Origin: Candidatus Uhrbacteria bacterium
GTDB taxonomy: Bacteria; Patescibacteriota; Patescibacteriia; UBA9934; GWF2-40-263
Length of the DNA: 64,000 nt
Assembly (NCBI GenBank): GCA_016188425.1
Contig: JACPHX010000002.1
Span: 2,373 to 66,372 of the forward strand
Reading direction: 5' to 3'
Below are positions 1,396 to 8,209 of this stretch, one piece after another. The position numbers and the translations under genes were made by a program. The notes under the pieces were generated by a model, which was not told where the DNA came from, ran no database searches, and saw nothing but the letters and a program-made list of their open reading frames with translations. How positions within the stretch are numbered: position 1 is the stretch's first letter; every line of letters starts with the position of its first letter.

Positions 1396-2697
1396 TTACG
1401 GGGTGCGGGTAACGATGGCGCCCAAGGCCTTCAATTTCTCATCCAAGGCCTCGTAGCCGCGGTCGAGATGCTCGATGCCGTTGAGTGTCGATTCCCCATC
1501 CGCCATCAATGCGGCAATGACATAAGCGAGGCCGGCGCGGATGTCGGGGACAGTGACGGTGGCGGGGTGGAGTTTCCTGGGGCCAGTGATAACGGCGGAG
1601 TGTTTATAATTCATTCCACGATACCGACACGGAATTTCCCCAAGACATTTAGTCGACAAAGCAATATCGGCGCCCATTTCCACGAGGGCCTTCGTGTATC
1701 CGAAACGTTCTTCGTAGACCGTTTCATGCACAACGGAGGTCCCCTTTGCCTGCGTCAGTACAGCAACAAACGGCTGCTGCCAGTCGGTGGAAAACCCTGG
1801 AAACGTGTCCGTTTCCAGTTCAATGCTTCGCAAAGCTCCTTCAGCAAAAAAACGAATGCCATCTTTTTTTACCTGATATTCCCCACCGATCTTTCGCACG
1901 GCGTTCAAAAACGACACCATATCTTGCTGACGCGCGCCACGGACCGTGATGTCCCCGCGCGTTCCAAGCGCCATACAGGCGAATGATGCCGCCTCCATGC
2001 GGTCTGGGATAACGGTCTGGGTCGCGCCATGCAACGTCTCAACGCCGATCATCTCAATGGTCCGGTTCGCATTCGTCTGGATGATCGCTCCCATGTTCTG
2101 CAGGAGCATAATAAGTTCCATAATCTCCGGCTCGATGGCGGCGTTGTTGATGACCGTTCGTCCGGCCGCAAGAACACCGGCATACAAACCTGTCTCGGTT
2201 GCGCCGACGGACGGATAGGGCAAATCGATCACTGTCCCCGACAATCGTCCTTCCACCGTCGCTGACAATCCGCCGGGCACCTCGGCAATTGCCGCCCCCA
2301 TGGCCACCAAGGTATCAATATGAAAATTCACCGGGCGAGGCCCGATTTTGTCTCCAGATGGTCGAGGAACCGTGGCAGAGCCGTGGCGATGCAACAAAGG
2401 AGCGGCGAGCAAAATCCCCAAACGATTCTTGCTTCCCATCGGGAGAAAATCCCCGGTCTTTATCTCCTTGGTCTGTGCCGTTATCTCGTGATCCCCCGTC
2501 CAGTCGACGACGTTCCCGACCGCTTTCACCAGTTCGATCGCAATGGATGTCTCTTCATTCTTGGGAACATTTTTCAACGTCACGGGTTCGTCGGTCAACA
2601 ACGAGGCAAACAATAATTTTGAGGCGCTGTTTTTTGCGCCGGCAATTTGGACTTCTCCTGTGAGGGGCTTTCCTCCGGTGATGCGATAAGAAGGCAT
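1396..2697 (-). CDS. murA: UDP-N-acetylglucosamine 1-carboxyvinyltransferase
   Basis: 433 aa, typical MurA/EPSP-fold sequence along the full length (KLxGEVxIxGAKNSA N-terminus). Confidence 0.9.
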   Translation of the reverse strand: MPSYRITGGKPLTGEVQIAGAKNSASKLLFASLLTDEPVTLKNVPKNEETSIAIELVKAVGNVVDWTGDHEITAQTKEIKTGDFLPMGSKNRLGILLAAPLLHRHGSATVPRPSGDKIGPRPVNFHIDTLVAMGAAIAEVPGGLSATVEGRLSGTVIDLPYPSVGATETGLYAGVLAAGRTVINNAAIEPEIMELIMLLQNMGAIIQTNANRTIEMIGVETLHGATQTVIPDRMEAASFACMALGTRGDITVRGARQQDMVSFLNAVRKIGGEYQVKKDGIRFFAEGALRSIELETDTFPGFSTDWQQPFVAVLTQAKGTSVVHETVYEERFGYTKALVEMGADIALSTKCLGEIPCRYRGMNYKHSAVITGPRKLHPATVTVPDIRAGLAYVIAALMADGESTLNGIEHLDRGYEALDEKLKALGAIVTRTP

Positions 2698-2718: not shown

Positions 2719-3048
2719 CTAACGGTCATTCCCGGAGCCGCCCAAGACGCCGCGCTCCAGGCGGGAGAATAATTTTTGCAAGTTGGTCCAGGCGACGTCT
2801 TCCAAAGAAAAACCAAGCTCGGAGGAAATCTGGGCGATATACCACATCACATCCCCCAATTCTTTCTTCACGGCTTCCCGTCTTTGGGGCGTCATCACTC
2901 CCCCATCATCACGCAACATTTTTTTAATCTGTTCCGCGACCTCTCCTGTCTCCCCCGCTAGTCCGAGCGTTGGATACGTTACGTTTGACCCAACTTGTGG
3001 ATACAGGGCAGTCTTTCTGGACTGTTGTTGATATTCGTCTAATGTCAT
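2719..3048 (-). CDS. MazG-like nucleoside triphosphate pyrophosphohydrolase
   Basis: LGLAGETGEVAEQIKK...LGDVMWYIAQI EExxE/MazG motifs. Start re-placed on the internal ATG (MTLDEY...). Confidence 0.65.
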   Translation of the reverse strand: MTLDEYQQQSRKTALYPQVGSNVTYPTLGLAGETGEVAEQIKKMLRDDGGVMTPQRREAVKKELGDVMWYIAQISSELGFSLEDVAWTNLQKLFSRLERGVLGGSGNDR

Positions 3049-3148
3049 ACGAGGGCAGTGTAAACAAAAAAGACCCAGGGAGGAAGGCGTCGATCGTCGA
3101 CGGGGCTCCCGAGGGTCTTCCGCAGAGCGCGTCGTCAAACGAAGCGGC

Positions 3149-3385
3149 TCATCGATTTCGATAGGCCAACAGATCAAGAACCTGGGCGAGACTCCCCTCC
3201 TTGATCAGAACGTCCACTTCAGGTTTCCCCGTGGACATCCCGTTTTGGACGCGCGCGCGGATCTCGAGGAAGCGCCGCTGCCCCTCCCGCGCGAAGGCAT
3301 CCGCCTTCGATTGGGCATGGGCGCGCTCGCCATCGACGAGCTTCAAATGGAACAGTTCTTCGTGGGTTCCGTGGTTCATTTTCAT
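3149..3385 (-). CDS. Hypothetical small protein (78 aa)
   Basis: ORF only, no recognised homology. Position and strand fit the murA-mazG operon. Confidence 0.3.
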   Translation of the reverse strand: MKMNHGTHEELFHLKLVDGERAHAQSKADAFAREGQRRFLEIRARVQNGMSTGKPEVDVLIKEGSLAQVLDLLAYRNR

Positions 3386-3518: not shown

Positions 3519-3591
3519 CGGGCTATGGCGCAGTTGGTAGCGCGCTTGCATGGGGTGCAAGAGGTCGTGGGTTCAAATCCCGCTAGCCCGA
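3519..3591 (+). tRNA. tRNA-Pro (anticodon GGG)
   Basis: Manual cloverleaf: acceptor CGGGCTA/TAGCCCG, D arm GCGC-AGTTGGTA-GCGC, anticodon stem CTTGC/GCAAG with loop ATGGGGT, T arm GTGGG-TTCAAAT-CCCGC, discriminator A. CCA is not encoded. Confidence 0.8.
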
Positions 3592-3592
3592 G

Positions 3593-3640
3593 GCAAATGG
3601 ACGGCCTAAAGCCGTCCGAGCAACCGCAAAAATCCACCGA
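3593..3640 (+). terminator. Hairpin plus T-run terminator downstream of tRNA-Pro
   Basis: ATCCACCGATGAACGTCGGTGGAT followed by TTTTT. A second hairpin AAAAAACCGCCC...GGGTGGTTTTTT lies at ~3683-3713. Confidence 0.5.
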
Positions 3641-3932
3641 TGAACGTCGGTGGATTTTTGATCGAATAAGAATCGGAATCAAAAAACCGCCCTTTAGGGG
3701 TGGTTTTTTGGCGCCTCGCCGAAGCGATTACGGACGATGCCCCAATGGAACGGGAGTGGGTCGTGATGATTGCTTGTCGAGACCACCACGGCTTCCCTGT
3801 AAGTTCCCATGTTCCGGCTACGGTAACCTATCCCATCGCCCGAACCGACGACACGAGGCAATTACAACGTACCACCAGGATGATGATGATGCAATGAATT
3901 TTTTTGAGTTATCCCCAGCCAAAAACATACAT

Positions 3933-3966
3933 AAAACCCGCTTTTTTCAGAGAGAAAAAGCGGGTC
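3933..3966 (-). terminator. Intrinsic terminator of the RSH-domain gene
   Basis: AAACCCGCTTTTT / AAAAAGCGGGT inverted repeat overlapping the stop codon. Confidence 0.5.
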
Positions 3967-5182
3967 AGCGATAAAACCAGCCGAGTTGGCTCAAGAGAGA
4001 CGCGCGGCAACGGGATTCAACGTGGGGCAGTCGCCAGGGCACACGATAAAAGCGCCAAGGGAGCAAACGAGGAAAGTACTCCCGCAACATCTGCCGCAGC
4101 CGATAGAGGCGGTGATTCTCATCCCCTCCTCCGTAGGTGCAGTTGAGATGATCCCGCATGGGGAGTACCTGGAGCTCGAAGGGCTTCTGGTGCAGATGCA
4201 ACAGCATCTTGATGGCGCGGAACCGTTCGTGAGAATTGGCGTTCTCCTGATCGACCGACACGCCGCCGACAAGATTCTCCCCTTCAAGAACGCAGGTTCC
4301 TCCTGCCCGATGGATCAAATCCTGCACGCGGGAGGCGACCTGGCGCGCCACCGTCTCATCCGCCACCACCAGACGAACCGCCCGGCGATCACGCACCGTA
4401 TAGGCGTCATCTTTCTTGCGCCGAAGCTGTCGCATGATCTTGAGAAGCGTCATGAACGGCAGCTTCACTCGATGGCTCAAGTGCACCGGCTCACCCGTGG
4501 TCAAACGGCGAAAGAGAAACGAGTGCTCTTGCATAACGAAGGATCCTCGAGGGATCGGCCCGTCTTCGATCATCGCTTCTCGTGCCCGATAAGAATCCAC
4601 CGGGTCGTACCAGCCACGCACGGTGGCATCGTGGAACGACCCATCGAAAAGTCCATCCTCGAGGATCGCGAGCAGCCCCTCCAAGTCGCTGGAGGCACTT
4701 TGCAAACTTTCCATGCGATCCAGAAACATCTGCCCGACCGCGAGGTCGAACAAACTGATCGCCTGCGACCAGATGAGACGTTTGGTGCGCGACCCATTGG
4801 CGACATACACCTTTGCTCGATTCAGGAGCCGCTCCAATGTCATCGCAAGACTCACCGACATCTCCAGGTCGAAGATGGATTCGTAGGGTGACGCGAAACG
4901 GCCGATGATGTGATCACGCGCGAGCCGTGATTCGTGGATAGCGGTATTCCCCCGCTCTCGATCGTGATCGGACAACCCCTCCAAGAGAAGTTGCCGATGA
5001 GTGACGGCGGATTCAGACGGTTCGTACCAATCCGGAATCCAATCCAACAGCTGCTTCATGCTGTGCAAAGAACCATGCTCCTCTCTGAACAGAAACCACC
5101 GCAGGTAAGCTGCGGTGGCGGATGGGTTGAGTAGGTTGCAGACTACTTCACTCCACAGACACCGCCGCACAGGAAAAGACAT
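3965..5182 (-). CDS. RelA/SpoT-homologue (small-alarmone-synthetase / toxSAS-like) nucleotidyltransferase-domain protein. Has an N-terminal extension and an Arg/Trp-rich C-terminal tail
   Basis: Residues ~228-345 match the RSH synthetase motifs: HRVKLPFMTLLKIMRQLRRKK (gRvK..S..rK), DRRAVRLVV (DxxGxRiv), SHERFRAIKMLLHL (GYrSlHlvv), FELQVLPMRDH (vEiQiRT..H). The true start is uncertain and the N-terminal ~40 aa have odd composition. Confidence 0.55.
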   Translation of the reverse strand: MSFPVRRCLWSEVVCNLLNPSATAAYLRWFLFREEHGSLHSMKQLLDWIPDWYEPSESAVTHRQLLLEGLSDHDRERGNTAIHESRLARDHIIGRFASPYESIFDLEMSVSLAMTLERLLNRAKVYVANGSRTKRLIWSQAISLFDLAVGQMFLDRMESLQSASSDLEGLLAILEDGLFDGSFHDATVRGWYDPVDSYRAREAMIEDGPIPRGSFVMQEHSFLFRRLTTGEPVHLSHRVKLPFMTLLKIMRQLRRKKDDAYTVRDRRAVRLVVADETVARQVASRVQDLIHRAGGTCVLEGENLVGGVSVDQENANSHERFRAIKMLLHLHQKPFELQVLPMRDHLNCTYGGGDENHRLYRLRQMLREYFPRLLPWRFYRVPWRLPHVESRCRASLLSQLGWFYR

Positions 5183-5320
5183 CCTTGCAGGTAAGGATGA
5201 GATCCATGCGGCAAATGTAGGAATGCAATTTCATAGTCCTTTTCTAGGATACCAGATCGAAAGCAAAAGAAATAAAGTTATCCACAGCATACCAAACCTG
5301 ATTCCTGCTGGACTGGCATA

Positions 5321-5360
5321 TAAAATGTGGCCAAGGGGCATGCCCCTTGGCCACATTTTA
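5321..5360. repeat. Perfect 40-nt palindrome, copy 1 of 3
   Basis: TAAAATGTGGCCAAGGGGCATGCCCCTTGGCCACATTTTA reads identically on both strands. It lies between the ndk stop and the RSH gene. Confidence 0.9.
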
Positions 5361-5370
5361 TATGCTGTAA

Positions 5371-5838
5371 TTAAATTCCTTCTCCAAAAACATACCTGTC
5401 TGTTATCTTCTCATAAGCGAACAGTTCATCCTCTTTGAAGAACCGCTTGATTTCCCCGGCGGCCGCATCGACAGAATCTGATGCGTGTACGAGATTGGAC
5501 GGAACGTTCATCGACAAGTCCGCGCGTATCGTTCCTGCGTCTGCCGCACGAGGATTCGTCGCCCCGACAAGTTTGCGCACGCTCTCGATCGCGTCGATAC
5601 CTTCCAGGACAAGAGCCACGACCGGCGTCTGCATCATGAACTGCTTAATGCTCTTGAAGAACACTTTCTCTTTCAGGTGAATGTAGTGCTCATCAAGAAG
5701 TGCGTCGGTGAGACGGACAAACTTGAGGGCAGAAATCTTGAGACCCTTGCGTTCAAACCGACCAAGAACTTCACCCAAGAGATCGCGCTGCAGAGCATCG
5801 GGCTTAATGAGGACGAGCGTGCGTTCGATATTCGCCAT
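5371..5838 (-). CDS. ndk: Nucleoside diphosphate kinase
   Basis: 155 aa with NDK fold motifs (LVLIKPDALQR..., catalytic-His region NLVHASDS). Confidence 0.9.
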   Translation of the reverse strand: MANIERTLVLIKPDALQRDLLGEVLGRFERKGLKISALKFVRLTDALLDEHYIHLKEKVFFKSIKQFMMQTPVVALVLEGIDAIESVRKLVGATNPRAADAGTIRADLSMNVPSNLVHASDSVDAAAGEIKRFFKEDELFAYEKITDRYVFGEGI

Positions 5839-5867: not shown

Positions 5868-6815
5868 CTAATATGGCAAGCGCTCGGCGGAAACAGTTGG
5901 CTCCCCGCCCGTGCTTTTCACAAGAATATCTCCTTGCTGATCCGTCCGGAACACCTCTATGTTTCGATCGGCGAACCGATGCAGCACCACGACGTGCGGA
6001 TGACCGTAAGAATTATCCGCCCCTGCCGAAATCAGCGCAATTTCCGGGGTTATCGTATCCAAAAAATACTGGCTATTGGAACTGGAACTGCCATGATGCC
6101 CTGCTTTGAGGATATCAATGTCTCCCATCGAAGGCGCAATCGCTTCTTCCACCTCTTTCTCGATGTCTCCGGTCAAAAGAATCGTCGTGTCGCCATACGT
6201 CAACTTTAAAACCACTGAGTGGTTGTTTGCCGATGTGTCATCGGGCGTATCCGGCATTGCATCCGGCGACAGCACATCAACCGTCACGCCGCCGACATCA
6301 TACTTCTCCCCCGCTCGTACCGATCGGACGACGGCTCCTTCTTCCCCCACAGCTAAATTGAATCGCTTCGCGATCTTAGTATCCCTCTGTGTTTCACCGT
6401 TCCCCCAAATATCTTTCACCTCGTATCGCTCGAGTACGGAGGGCAAGCCGCCGATATGATCAGCATCCAAGTGGCTGGATACCACATAATCGATCGTCCT
6501 ATCCCACGGCTTCATCACCGCGCCGAGCTTGGCAAGCACTTTGGAATCGCGCCCTCCGTCCATGAGCAGCTGCGTGCCATCGGGTGCCTCAAGAAAAAGC
6601 GCGTCTCCTTGCCCGATATCGAACATCCACAATCGCATCTCTCCCAGAGAACCAGACGCCGCAGAGGCCCCAGAGGTGGCGGAGGAGCGGATCAACAAAA
6701 AAATACCCACGCTCATCCAGACGACGAGCAGAAAAACTACGAACCAGAGTTTGCTGCGTCCTTGAGGGCGTCCACGCGAGGTTTGAAGAGCCATAGAAAT
6801 ATCAGGATAAGACAA
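5868..6815 (-). CDS. ComEC/Rec2 C-terminal metallo-beta-lactamase domain protein. Possibly the distal part of a split comEC
   Basis: N-terminal TM helix, then an MBL core: MFDIGQGDALFLE...SHLDADHIGG...AGHHGS. Confidence 0.65.
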   Translation of the reverse strand: MSYPDISMALQTSRGRPQGRSKLWFVVFLLVVWMSVGIFLLIRSSATSGASAASGSLGEMRLWMFDIGQGDALFLEAPDGTQLLMDGGRDSKVLAKLGAVMKPWDRTIDYVVSSHLDADHIGGLPSVLERYEVKDIWGNGETQRDTKIAKRFNLAVGEEGAVVRSVRAGEKYDVGGVTVDVLSPDAMPDTPDDTSANNHSVVLKLTYGDTTILLTGDIEKEVEEAIAPSMGDIDILKAGHHGSSSSNSQYFLDTITPEIALISAGADNSYGHPHVVVLHRFADRNIEVFRTDQQGDILVKSTGGEPTVSAERLPY

Positions 6816-8209
6816 AAGGCACTCACGATCGCGGCCGTATGAGGATCCACCGATTCATAAACCGCATGAGGGACAGAGGCACCTTGCCGTATAACCCATA
6901 ATATCATCGAAGAGAGAAGCACCGCTGGAACCGACAGATACGCGAGGATCGAGGCAGGCAGGAGAAAAGCCATCGGCAACAAAATAAGGCCAACAGCCAT
7001 CAGCAAAGGAACCAAGGGCAAAACGAATACATTGACGACTGGCGCGATCAAGGAGATCGAACCGAAATGCCAAAACATAATCGGCGCGGTCACAAGCGAA
7101 GCCACCAAGCTCCCCACGAGCGCCTCGCGCAGACCAAACACCTCTGGCATCCACGAAAAATATCCCTCGAGGTGATCTGGAATGAACAAAACAGCCGCCG
7201 TCGCCACAAAGGAAAGTTGAAACCCTGGATCAACGAGGAGGACGAACGGATTCAGAAGCAGCATGATCGGAAGCGCAAACGCGAGGAGGCGCATCGGGCT
7301 CCGCGGTCGACGAACCCACTCCGCCAGAAGCACAATCCCCGCCATGATCCCCGCGCGGATGACCGCCGCGGTCGCCCCTGCCAGGAACACATACACAACG
7401 ACCAACACTCCGGTCATGAAAATCCCCCTCCGCCGACCGAATCGTTCAATCGCAAACGCAAAAAAGAAAAACGTGAACAGCGACACATTGAATCCGCTCG
7501 CAGCAAGGATGTGCGACGTTCCCGTCCGCGAGAACGTATCCTGCAGATCATCGGACAACCCGGATGAACCGCCGAGAATCAAACCAGTCACAAACGACGA
7601 GTGCGGTTCTGGAAGCAGTCGGTTGAATCGATCCATCAGCAGAATCCTTGCTCGATACAGCCCTCCTCGCCAGGTCCACAGCCCCGCCTCGGCCGCGACC
7701 GACGACGGGAAGGTGCACAGCGCGTAGACCCCCTTGGTCGCGAGAAACTGGTCGTAAGGAAAACCGTTGAAGGGTTCTGGCCGTTTGAGTTTGCACGTGG
7801 CCGTCAACTGGTCATCTATGAACACCTCCTCCCCCATCGGGAGAAAGACGAGCACTCCCCCTCTTGCCTCCTCCCCACCAATCGTCAAATCCTTCACCGT
7901 CGCTCGTACGCCAGACATCCGCGTATCCACATCCGCGACGCGTCCGTGGATTTCCACTGCATGCTCTGGAAGCGTATCGACCCAAGTGGGCGTCCCCGGA
8001 GCCAGAATGACGCGCAAAATTCCCAAAAACAAACACAACGCAATTAAGCCAACTCGACGAAGCAGACCAGATGAAAAAACCAACAATAACAACGGAACAG
8101 ACAGCGCATACCAGACCCATTCCCCGGGGATCGGGATGAGCAAAGCAACCAAAATACCAAACATCACCGCCAAACAGGCGGTGACGAAAGTCCCAGAGGG
8201 AGAACGCAA
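6737..8209 (-). CDS. ComEC/Rec2 competence-channel membrane domain protein (proximal part)
   Basis: 490 aa polytopic membrane protein with an N-terminal DUF4131-like beta region and competence-domain-like TM block. Overlaps the MBL-domain ORF by 79 nt in a different frame. Confidence 0.6.
   Translation of the reverse strand: MRSPSGTFVTACLAVMFGILVALLIPIPGEWVWYALSVPLLLLVFSSGLLRRVGLIALCLFLGILRVILAPGTPTWVDTLPEHAVEIHGRVADVDTRMSGVRATVKDLTIGGEEARGGVLVFLPMGEEVFIDDQLTATCKLKRPEPFNGFPYDQFLATKGVYALCTFPSSVAAEAGLWTWRGGLYRARILLMDRFNRLLPEPHSSFVTGLILGGSSGLSDDLQDTFSRTGTSHILAASGFNVSLFTFFFFAFAIERFGRRRGIFMTGVLVVVYVFLAGATAAVIRAGIMAGIVLLAEWVRRPRSPMRLLAFALPIMLLLNPFVLLVDPGFQLSFVATAAVLFIPDHLEGYFSWMPEVFGLREALVGSLVASLVTAPIMFWHFGSISLIAPVVNVFVLPLVPLLMAVGLILLPMAFLLPASILAYLSVPAVLLSSMILWVIRQGASVPHAVYESVDPHTAAIVSAFCLILIFLWLFKPRVDALKDAANSGS

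Follow-up and report, generated by a model that had tools for sequence, protein, structure and literature searches.

The stringent response is the work of RelA/SpoT homologue (RSH) enzymes, which also furnish several toxin and defence systems. An R-x-K...K motif of Rel, RelA and RelQ binds the phosphates of ATP, their Syn2 aspartate and Syn4 glutamate coordinate Mg2+, and an aromatic residue of Syn3 stacks on the acceptor base. A classification based on hidden Markov models (HMMs) distinguishes 30 small alarmone synthetase (SAS), 11 small alarmone hydrolase (SAH) and 13 long-RSH subfamilies (PMC7229694). Here we describe HYV73_00110, a protein encoded on the minus strand of a 64,000-nucleotide (nt) stretch of Candidatus Uhrbacteria DNA (contig JACPHX010000002.1, positions 2,373 to 66,372; hereafter the window). 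By the agreement of profile and model comparisons it belongs to the RSH superfamily and has the synthetase fold, through a relationship that is remote yet unanimous. The reading that we favour, with a probability of about 0.5, is that this very divergent RSH family consists of active ATP-dependent pyrophosphokinases that make an alarmone-type nucleotide and are coupled to the nucleoside diphosphate kinase Ndk, whose gene commonly adjoins theirs.

Relationship to RSH synthetases

On its own, HYV73_00110 scores 13.8 bits against the Pfam RelA_SpoT profile PF04607 (E = 0.075; profile positions 7-101 of 113), below the gathering threshold of 27, and searches of NCBIfam, PADLOC and the PDB (phmmer) with the single sequence gave nothing useful. 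A word-indexed protein search found only two to four proteins including the query, its first pass consisting of HYV73_00110 and one relative. An exhaustive HMMER search over 1.84 billion cluster representatives recovered 169 proteins at E ≤ 1e-3, 42 of them at E ≤ 1e-30, which are mostly 360-470 residues long and align with the query from end to end. The named members are all annotated as 'hypothetical' or 'uncharacterized' and come from Ca. Uhrbacteria or the 'Patescibacteria group', and the family has no Pfam, NCBIfam or PADLOC assignment.

A profile built from an alignment of 60 family members (A2; mean column identity 24%) finds long RSH proteins of the Rel/RelA type in all nine of its top PDB matches (E 1.3e-4 to 2e-2), among them B. 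subtilis Rel (8acu, 1.3e-4; 6yxa, 2.4e-4), RelSeq (1vj7, 4.9e-4), E. coli RelA (5iqr, 1.7e-3) and M. tuberculosis Rel. RelP was matched more weakly than the long RSHs (E = 0.54), and CapRel, FaRel2 and Tas1 gave no sequence match at E ≤ 10. In the comparison with the RelA_SpoT profile, which the preliminary description had proposed, the match of the protein alone is not significant, at 13.8 bits against a threshold of 27. Individually, 18 of the 60 members match PF04607 weakly, the best of the 60 at E = 5.4e-4, and a distant member (P0145) scores 24.4 bits. In an hhalign comparison the family aligns with residues 244-362 of E. coli RelA (E = 9.6e-6, probability 83%) with Syn1 to Syn5 all aligned, pairing NGYQSIH of RelA with N-xx-SS-xx-F-R-A-x-K, EIQIRT with E-x-Q-x-x-T, and AAHWKYK with E-N-H-x-L-Y-R-L.

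Structure prediction with AlphaFold2 gave a mean predicted local distance difference test score (pLDDT) of 96 and a predicted template modelling score (pTM) of 0.92 when the 60-sequence alignment was supplied, against a pLDDT of 43 with three sequences. In this model the C-terminal two thirds of the protein forms an RSH synthetase fold. When the PDB was searched with the model by Foldseek, the first 33 places were all taken by RSH enzymes, including RelSeq, S. aureus Rel, RelP, RelQ, SpoT, an exported SAS, CapRel (7ztb) and Tas1 (6ox6), and other nucleotidyltransferases (Pol lambda/mu, TglT and the CCA-adding enzyme) ranked below these 33 at E > 0.2. The extra domains of HYV73_00110 keep the TM-scores low (0.22-0.30 on the query). 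A viral structure library likewise placed RelA/SpoT proteins on top and held no close relative. Because the A2 profile, the hhalign comparison, the weak PF04607 matches and Foldseek agree, the family-level signal lies far beyond chance, and the preliminary description's view of a divergent protein with an RSH synthetase fold and additional N- and C-terminal regions is supported.

Those additional regions had been called unrecognisable, a judgement that does not hold at the level of the family, where both are conserved, confidently folded domains. The predicted architecture comprises an all-helical N-terminal domain, a three-strand beta extension, the SYNTH-like core and a short aromatic tail (Table 1), the protein ending 45 residues past Syn5. 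The tail has a pLDDT of ~97 except in its last seven residues, and among the 139 family members of at least 300 residues used for all conservation counts, P337 is kept in 138, W345 in 124 and Y341 in 101 (Phe in a further 25). Searches of the PDB and Pfam with a profile of residues 1-140 (A3) returned only coiled-coil noise. An origin of this domain from the RSH hydrolase, a possibility raised in the preliminary description, was examined and rejected: alignment with SpoT residues 1-260 has an hhalign probability of 0.5%, there is no conserved His-Asp, and no HD signal was seen. No Pfam domain corresponding to the TGS, helical, ZFD or ACT regions was found in the C-terminus, and the longer family members have no added Pfam domains and no fusions to other enzymatic or binding domains.

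The motifs follow one another as the preliminary description had stated for the maximal open reading frame (ORF) of 405 residues (3965-5182, minus strand), in whose numbering they read R238-V-K240...K248, D265-RRAVRLVV, E319-RFRAIKMLL and E336-LQV-L340-P341...H357..Y360. Residue numbers elsewhere in this text refer to the 367-residue form, to which 38 is added for the numbering of the ORF. Syn1, the Syn2 Asp, the Syn4 Glu/Gln and the Syn5 H-x-x-Y-[KR] are all present in HYV73_00110 in canonical order. At a mean identity of ~25%, K202 and D227 occur in all 139 sequences, E298 in 137, Y322 in 135, R200 in 130, K210 in 128 (with Arg in six more), N276 in 128, H319 in 126, S279 in 116 (Thr in 13 more) and Q300 in 107, and position 283 is Phe or Tyr in 116; within the A2 alignment K202, D227, N276 and Y322 are invariant. 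The family also conserves D155-P156, R187, P337, Y341 and W345, which have no RSH counterpart. The replacement of the catalytic Arg-Thr of EIQIRT by Leu-Pro, pointed out earlier as a feature of this protein, is real (positions 302-303) but no peculiarity of it: position 302 is Met, Gln, Leu, Val or Thr and Arg in none of the 139, and position 303 is Thr in 52 and Pro in 20. As judged from these counts, purifying selection on the catalytic residues is strong, and conservation of this kind at such low overall identity indicates an enzyme, not a relic.

We classify the family as a probable new RSH architecture and subfamily. Literature searches on alarmone enzymes of the Candidate Phyla Radiation (CPR)/Patescibacteria yielded no description of it. 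An HMM classification working at Pfam-level sensitivity would miss such a family, and Pfam-based statements that a lineage lacks RelA/SpoT can overlook remote homologues.

Linkage to ndk and the surrounding locus

HYV73_00110 lies in the window within the minus-strand order ComEC, a metallo-beta-lactamase-fold protein (MBL), ndk, HYV73_00110, a MazG-domain gene and murA. Across 17 contexts found by starting from proteins of the family, ndk adjoins the RSH-like gene in 11 (the window, L001, L002, L003, L006, L009, L012, L014, L016, L018 and L019), and in the rearranged locus L020 it lies less than 1 kb away on the opposite strand, which makes 12 of 17 with ndk nearby. It is missing near the gene in L004, in the truncated locus L021 and in L022-L024, which hold the three most distant relatives. 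In L009, L012 and L014 the order is NusB, RNase III, L32, ndk and the RSH-like gene, so that an otherwise different neighbourhood keeps the pair. Pairwise identities of the two proteins are only weakly correlated (r = 0.39, Mantel p ~0.004): between the window and L001 the RSH-like proteins are 47% and the Ndk proteins 45% identical, and between the window and L025 the values are 22% and 79%. The RSH-like protein diverges faster than its neighbours, at 22-29% identity where Ndk has 70-79% and ComEC/MBL ~42%. Judged by these comparisons, the pair is not simply inherited as a block, yet it persists; since the trees are weakly congruent while the adjacency remains, selection for the linkage is suggested.

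Seen from the ndk side, the gene is patchily distributed. Of 80 metagenomic loci whose Ndk is 51-79% identical to that of the window, 52 extend at least 1.5 kb downstream, and seven of these 52 carry the gene, all seven among the 17 closest. No pseudogene remnants were found in the related loci that lack it, where the slot is taken by genes of ordinary metabolism: GNAT acetyltransferases, M20/M19 peptidases, a kinase-like protein, or murA directly. HYV73_00110 is a real, chromosomal gene of ordinary GC content; it is dispensable and sits in an ordinary chromosomal region, and the slot is no defence island. Since 45 of the 52 related ndk loci lack it, it does not count as a core gene of the stringent response. 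With regard to the alternative in the preliminary description, that it may be the organism's only (p)ppGpp synthetase, its patchy presence (7 of the 17 closest) argues against an indispensable housekeeping role. No second RSH or SpoT-like hydrolase was found by HMM, BLAST and phmmer searches of the 64-kb window and the fetched loci, which cover a fraction of the genomes.

The family is found mainly in Patescibacteria/CPR, in a taxonomic census that is thin, scans of GTDB genomes having yielded zero and then four loci. Two GTDB contigs among the contexts, L018 (CAZPPQ010000015.1) and L020 (CAZWRL010000007.1), are titled 'uncultured Gammaproteobacteria bacterium' and carry ComEC, MBL, ndk, the RSH-like gene and murA of Uhrbacteria type; the organism label of these third-party annotation (TPA) records is probably wrong. 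A distant branch, scoring 94-139 bits against the A2 profile, comprises L022 6001-7410 (P0145), L023 6001-7308 (P0172) and L024 6001-8202 (P0171, 733 residues) and has no ndk linkage. The member in L023, a metagenome-assembled genome (MAG) labelled Desulfobulbaceae, has hybrid histidine kinases, response regulators and an HD-domain response regulator as its neighbours. These surroundings hint at a function in signalling and at members outside the CPR (or else at contamination of the MAG).

The limits of the gene are best placed at 3965-5068, because the identical NCBI entry (a 'hypothetical protein' on a 68-kb contig) and the homologues begin at codon 39 of the maximal ORF and an AGGAG precedes the TTG at that position. 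The same start is used by the closest homologue (P0002, 46% identity) and by the remaining family. Codons 1-38 of the ORF thus probably form an untranslated 5' leader.

Table 1. Coordinates of the gene, its predicted domains and motifs, and neighbouring features (window positions unless a locus is named).
Feature	Position	Strand	Remarks
murA	1396-2697	-	minus-strand neighbour
MazG-domain nucleotide pyrophosphohydrolase	2719-3177	-	PF03819 E 7.6e-12; ~0.8 kb downstream of HYV73_00110
tRNA-Pro(GGG)	3519-3591	+	convergent with HYV73_00110
Terminator hairpin, downstream	3627-3660
Terminator hairpin, downstream	3680-3710		bidirectional
Intrinsic-terminator-like hairpin of HYV73_00110 with T-run	3936-3965	-	overlaps or directly follows the stop
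HYV73_00110, most likely coding sequence	3965-5068	-	367 residues plus stop; TTG start, AGGAG 9 nt upstream
Aromatic C-terminal tail, P337, Y341, W345...LGW	3968-4063	-	short, helical; packs on the core in the model
RSH SYNTH-like core, residues 190-335	within 4064-4648	-	beta-alpha-beta-alpha-beta-beta-beta-alpha-alpha; carries the motifs
Syn5-like N318-H319-R-L-Y322	4103-4117	-	aligns with RelA AAHWKYK
Syn4 E298-L-Q300, then V-L-P instead of I-R-T	4169-4177	-	residue counts over 139 members in text
Divergent Syn3/acceptor-binding N276-xx-S279-S/H-xx-F283-R-A-x-K287	4208-4243	-	F283 corresponds to Tyr of RelA NGYQSIH
Syn2 Asp D227 in DRRAVRLVV	4388-4390	-	aligns with Asp of the RelA DVRAVRIV strand
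Syn1-like R200-x-K202-x7-K210, putative ATP phosphate-binding helix	4439-4471	-	aligns with RelA R252/K254/K262
Three-strand beta extension, residues 141-189	within 4064-4648	-	motif [HY]-D-P..Y-R-V, R187
N-terminal all-helical domain, residues 1-140	4649-5068	-	helices 34-58, 94-119, 122-139; motif RRRFEAxSxFD
In-frame ORF extension upstream of TTG	5069-5182	-	38 codons; homologue and NCBI entry start at codon 39
Perfect 50-nt palindrome GCATATAAAATGTGGCCAAGGGGCATGCCCCTTGGCCACATTTTATATGC	5316-5365	.	5 nt past the ndk stop; terminator-type hairpin of ndk
ndk	5371-5838	-	PF00334 E 4e-49; adjoins HYV73_00110 upstream
Metallo-beta-lactamase-fold protein (MBL)	5868-6815	-	minus-strand neighbour
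ComEC	6737-8209	-	minus-strand neighbour
tRNA-Pro(GGG) in L014	6663-6739
tRNA-Pro(GGG) in L016	6855-6931
tRNA-Pro(GGG) in L018	9171-9246
tRNA-Pro(GGG) in L026	6047-6120
tRNA-Pro(GGG) in L064	4376-4449

The terminators and the tRNA-Pro gene reported earlier downstream of the RSH-like gene are all present. A tRNA-Pro(GGG) gene stands beside the family gene, on either strand, in six contexts: convergent with it in the window, on its strand and 106-376 nt after it in L014, L016, L018 and L026, and on the opposite strand between it and ndk in L020 (9278-9351). In L064, which lacks the RSH-like gene, tRNA-Pro(GGG) lies 1.4 kb past ndk, and we therefore read the tRNA gene as probable ancestral ndk synteny rather than as a clue to a substrate. 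The simplest reading of these gene orders is that the RSH-like gene fits into an old ndk/tRNA-Pro neighbourhood. The tRNA gene was also considered as the integration site of an island and set aside on inspection, as it occurs on either strand relative to the RSH-like gene, no integrase is present and the spacer measures only ~1.7 kb.

The MazG gene of the window was considered as a conserved partner and rejected, since none turned up beside the family genes of the other loci; its position downstream of HYV73_00110 recalls the E. coli relA-mazEF-mazG order (L010), probably by coincidence. The earlier remark that there is no separate antitoxin gene stands: no conserved small partner ORF or adjacent antitoxin gene was seen among the contexts of the family, whose conserved neighbour is ndk. 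Two small ORFs called between ndk and the RSH-like gene, L012 4687-4911 (74 residues) and L016 4819-5004 (61 residues), are basic and of low complexity, and one of them overlaps the start of the family gene by 4 nt. They were rejected as antitoxin partners, being mutually unrelated and not conserved, and are probably spurious gene calls.

The palindrome upstream of the gene, described earlier as 40 nt long, is indeed perfect, but it extends over 50 nt and serves as the terminator-type hairpin of ndk, not as a feature of HYV73_00110. It occurs once in the window and is absent from all fetched loci, and most related spacers between the two genes have their own, unrelated terminator-like hairpin after ndk. 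With such a hairpin between the genes, transcription of the RSH-like gene may depend on read-through or on a promoter of its own. Its leader of ~250 nt (5069-5315, minus strand) contains two terminator-like hairpins, at 5199-5180 and 5119-5095; the latter has 10 bp, seven of them G-C, is followed by TTTCTGTT and ends 27 nt ahead of the start codon. As predicted structures, these could act as an attenuator or in read-through control. The sequence of the leader is not conserved in related loci, and Rfam gave no match to it; over the leader and the downstream spacer together, Rfam gave only the tRNA and spurious miRNA matches on the palindrome, and no riboswitch.

Between the terminator of the gene and the bidirectional hairpin, the minus-strand region 3711-3935 is a candidate small RNA or structured 3' region. 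It shares with L001 1519-1900 the collinear blocks GTGxTACGTTGTAA, TGGTGGTCxCGACAAGCAA and a terminator CACCAAAAAACCA...GGTTTTTTGA, a comparison of two sequences only, and appears non-coding because the blocks are separated by indels whose lengths are not divisible by three. The predicted fold of 3675-3968 is stable (-104.6 kcal/mol), and Rfam gave no match to it.

Possible activities

If HYV73_00110 is the active pyrophosphokinase that we favour, it would move the beta,gamma-pyrophosphate from ATP onto a purine nucleotide at its 3'-OH, with alarmones of the (p)ppGpp or (p)ppApp type as products. Ndk would form a small module with it, interconverting the nucleoside di- and triphosphate pools of acceptor and product. 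An RSH gene beside genes of nucleotide metabolism has precedent, since E. coli has spoT and gmk in one operon and mazEF-mazG downstream of relA, and the conversion of GDP to GTP by Ndk is a step of the classical (p)ppGpp cycle (bioRxiv 10.1101/350843). More speculatively, the aromatic tail, together with the helical N-terminal domain and the beta extension, might replace the HD/TGS/ACT regulatory apparatus of long RSHs and control or re-shape the active site, and these extra regions may compensate for the lost Arg of EIQIRT. A bolder proposal, which we put forward only tentatively and regard as doubtful, is that a CPR-centred RSH branch, in a two-gene module with Ndk, uses its rewritten acceptor site, which lacks the EIQIRT Arg and has a new Syn3 and additional conserved residues contributed by the beta extension, to make a different messenger or modification under the control of a novel N-terminal sensor, as a stringent-response-like switch for streamlined Patescibacteria.

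Several observations weigh against an active pyrophosphokinase coupled to Ndk. First, the protein by itself fails the Pfam threshold for RelA_SpoT. Second, the EIQIRT Arg is absent throughout the family and the Syn3/G-loop region is rewritten, so that the acceptor, and even the chemistry, could differ from those of known RSHs. Third, 45 of the 52 related ndk loci lack the gene, among them 10 of the 17 closest. Finally, its adjacency to ndk could in part be inherited gene order.

Alternatively, an RSH fold may have taken on a changed job, either as a transferase acting on a non-canonical acceptor (another nucleotide, a metabolite, Ndk itself or tRNA-Pro) or as a regulator of Ndk that binds nucleotides but makes little alarmone or none. 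Besides the family-wide loss of the Arg, the Syn3 motif now reads N-xx-S-S-xx-[FY]-[RK]-A-x-K, the conserved D155, P156, R187, P337 and W345 lie outside the canonical core, the N-terminal domain is new and without relatives, and the physical linkage to ndk is tight, all of which would suit such a role. We nevertheless consider it unlikely, as the full ATP-binding and catalytic set is near-invariant, which is unexpected in a mere binding protein, the base-stacking aromatic of Syn3 is retained in 116 of 139 sequences, and the longer members lack fused enzymatic or binding domains.

The preliminary description had instead likened the gene to the toxic SASs (toxSASs) of phage defence. Such a self-contained toxin or immunity protein would use its core to pyrophosphorylate the 3'-CCA of tRNAs or to make toxic (p)ppApp, restrained by a fused domain, such as the helical N-terminal domain or the C-terminal tail, until a trigger such as a phage appears, as in CapRel. 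In favour of this are the organisation as one gene that has additional conserved domains but lacks a partner, the patchy occurrence within a syntenic region (7 of the 17 closest ndk loci), the faster evolution of the protein relative to its neighbours, the incongruent trees of the protein and Ndk, the recurrence of a tRNA gene as neighbour, and the presence of CapRel 7ztb and Tas1 6ox6 among the fold matches. Searches aimed at a defence role, on the other hand, found nothing that supports it: PADLOC and PHROGs gave no consistent match across the 60 members, tblastn against 50,697 phage and 72,556 plasmid records gave no match to HYV73_00110, IMG/VR searched with two motif sets held no relative, and no mobile-element or defence signatures were seen around the family loci. 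Housekeeping genes surround the family gene (ComEC, MBL, ndk, murA, NusB, RNase III), and the GNATs, peptidases and murA that otherwise fill the slot include no defence genes. The ndk adjacency persists family-wide, unlike that of mobile defence genes, ndk and tRNA-Pro(GGG) adjoin without the gene in L064, and the sequence profiles lie nearer to long Rel/RelA than to CapRel, Tas1 and SASs, with no match to CapRel, FaRel2 or Tas1 at E ≤ 10. The defence framing thus finds no support in the databases or the neighbourhood, and a toxSAS-like role appears improbable. That the motif likeness arose by chance or from a generic nucleotidyltransferase fold unrelated to RSH is very improbable, for despite a non-significant single-sequence Pfam match (E = 0.075) and low TM-scores (0.22-0.30 on the query), four independent lines of evidence point to RSH and nothing else, other nucleotidyltransferases rank after 33 RSH structures with E > 0.2, and the invariant residues are the RSH catalytic positions.

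Should the alarmone synthesis that we favour take place, the family would add to the RSH enzymes an architecture whose regulatory domain is new and whose active site is modified, and would point to how nucleotide or nutrient status is sensed and signalled in ultra-small CPR bacteria, whose physiology is inferred almost wholly from genomes. The ndk linkage in turn provides a concrete two-enzyme hypothesis.

Comparison with described RSH enzymes

The best profile and fold matches of HYV73_00110 are the long RSHs (B. subtilis Rel, 6yxa/8acu; RelSeq, 1vj7/24io; E. coli RelA, 5iqr), with which it shares the order of the motifs, the predicted core topology and a large domain preceding the synthetase. 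Unlike them, it has no HD or pseudo-hydrolase signal, no TGS, ZFD or ACT domain and no EIQIRT Arg, its Syn3 is rewritten, and it adds the three-strand beta extension and the aromatic C-terminal tail. The SASs RelQ, RelP and RelV (5ded, 6ewz, 6fgx) and the exported SAS 8vx3 resemble it in standing alone without ribosome-binding domains, and Foldseek aligns it with them over ~180 columns with a probability of 0.97-1.00. It is, however, ~150 residues longer than these single SYNTH domains of ~200-250 residues and carries a conserved extra domain. We know of no linkage of SAS genes to ndk. CapRel (7ztb, 9erv) and the toxSAS/Tas1 enzymes likewise combine an RSH core and a regulatory-looking domain in one polypeptide without a partner gene. 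In CapRel, however, the antitoxin domain is C-terminal and the gene is associated with prophages and defence, whereas the extra domain of HYV73_00110 is N-terminal, unrelated and encoded in a housekeeping context.

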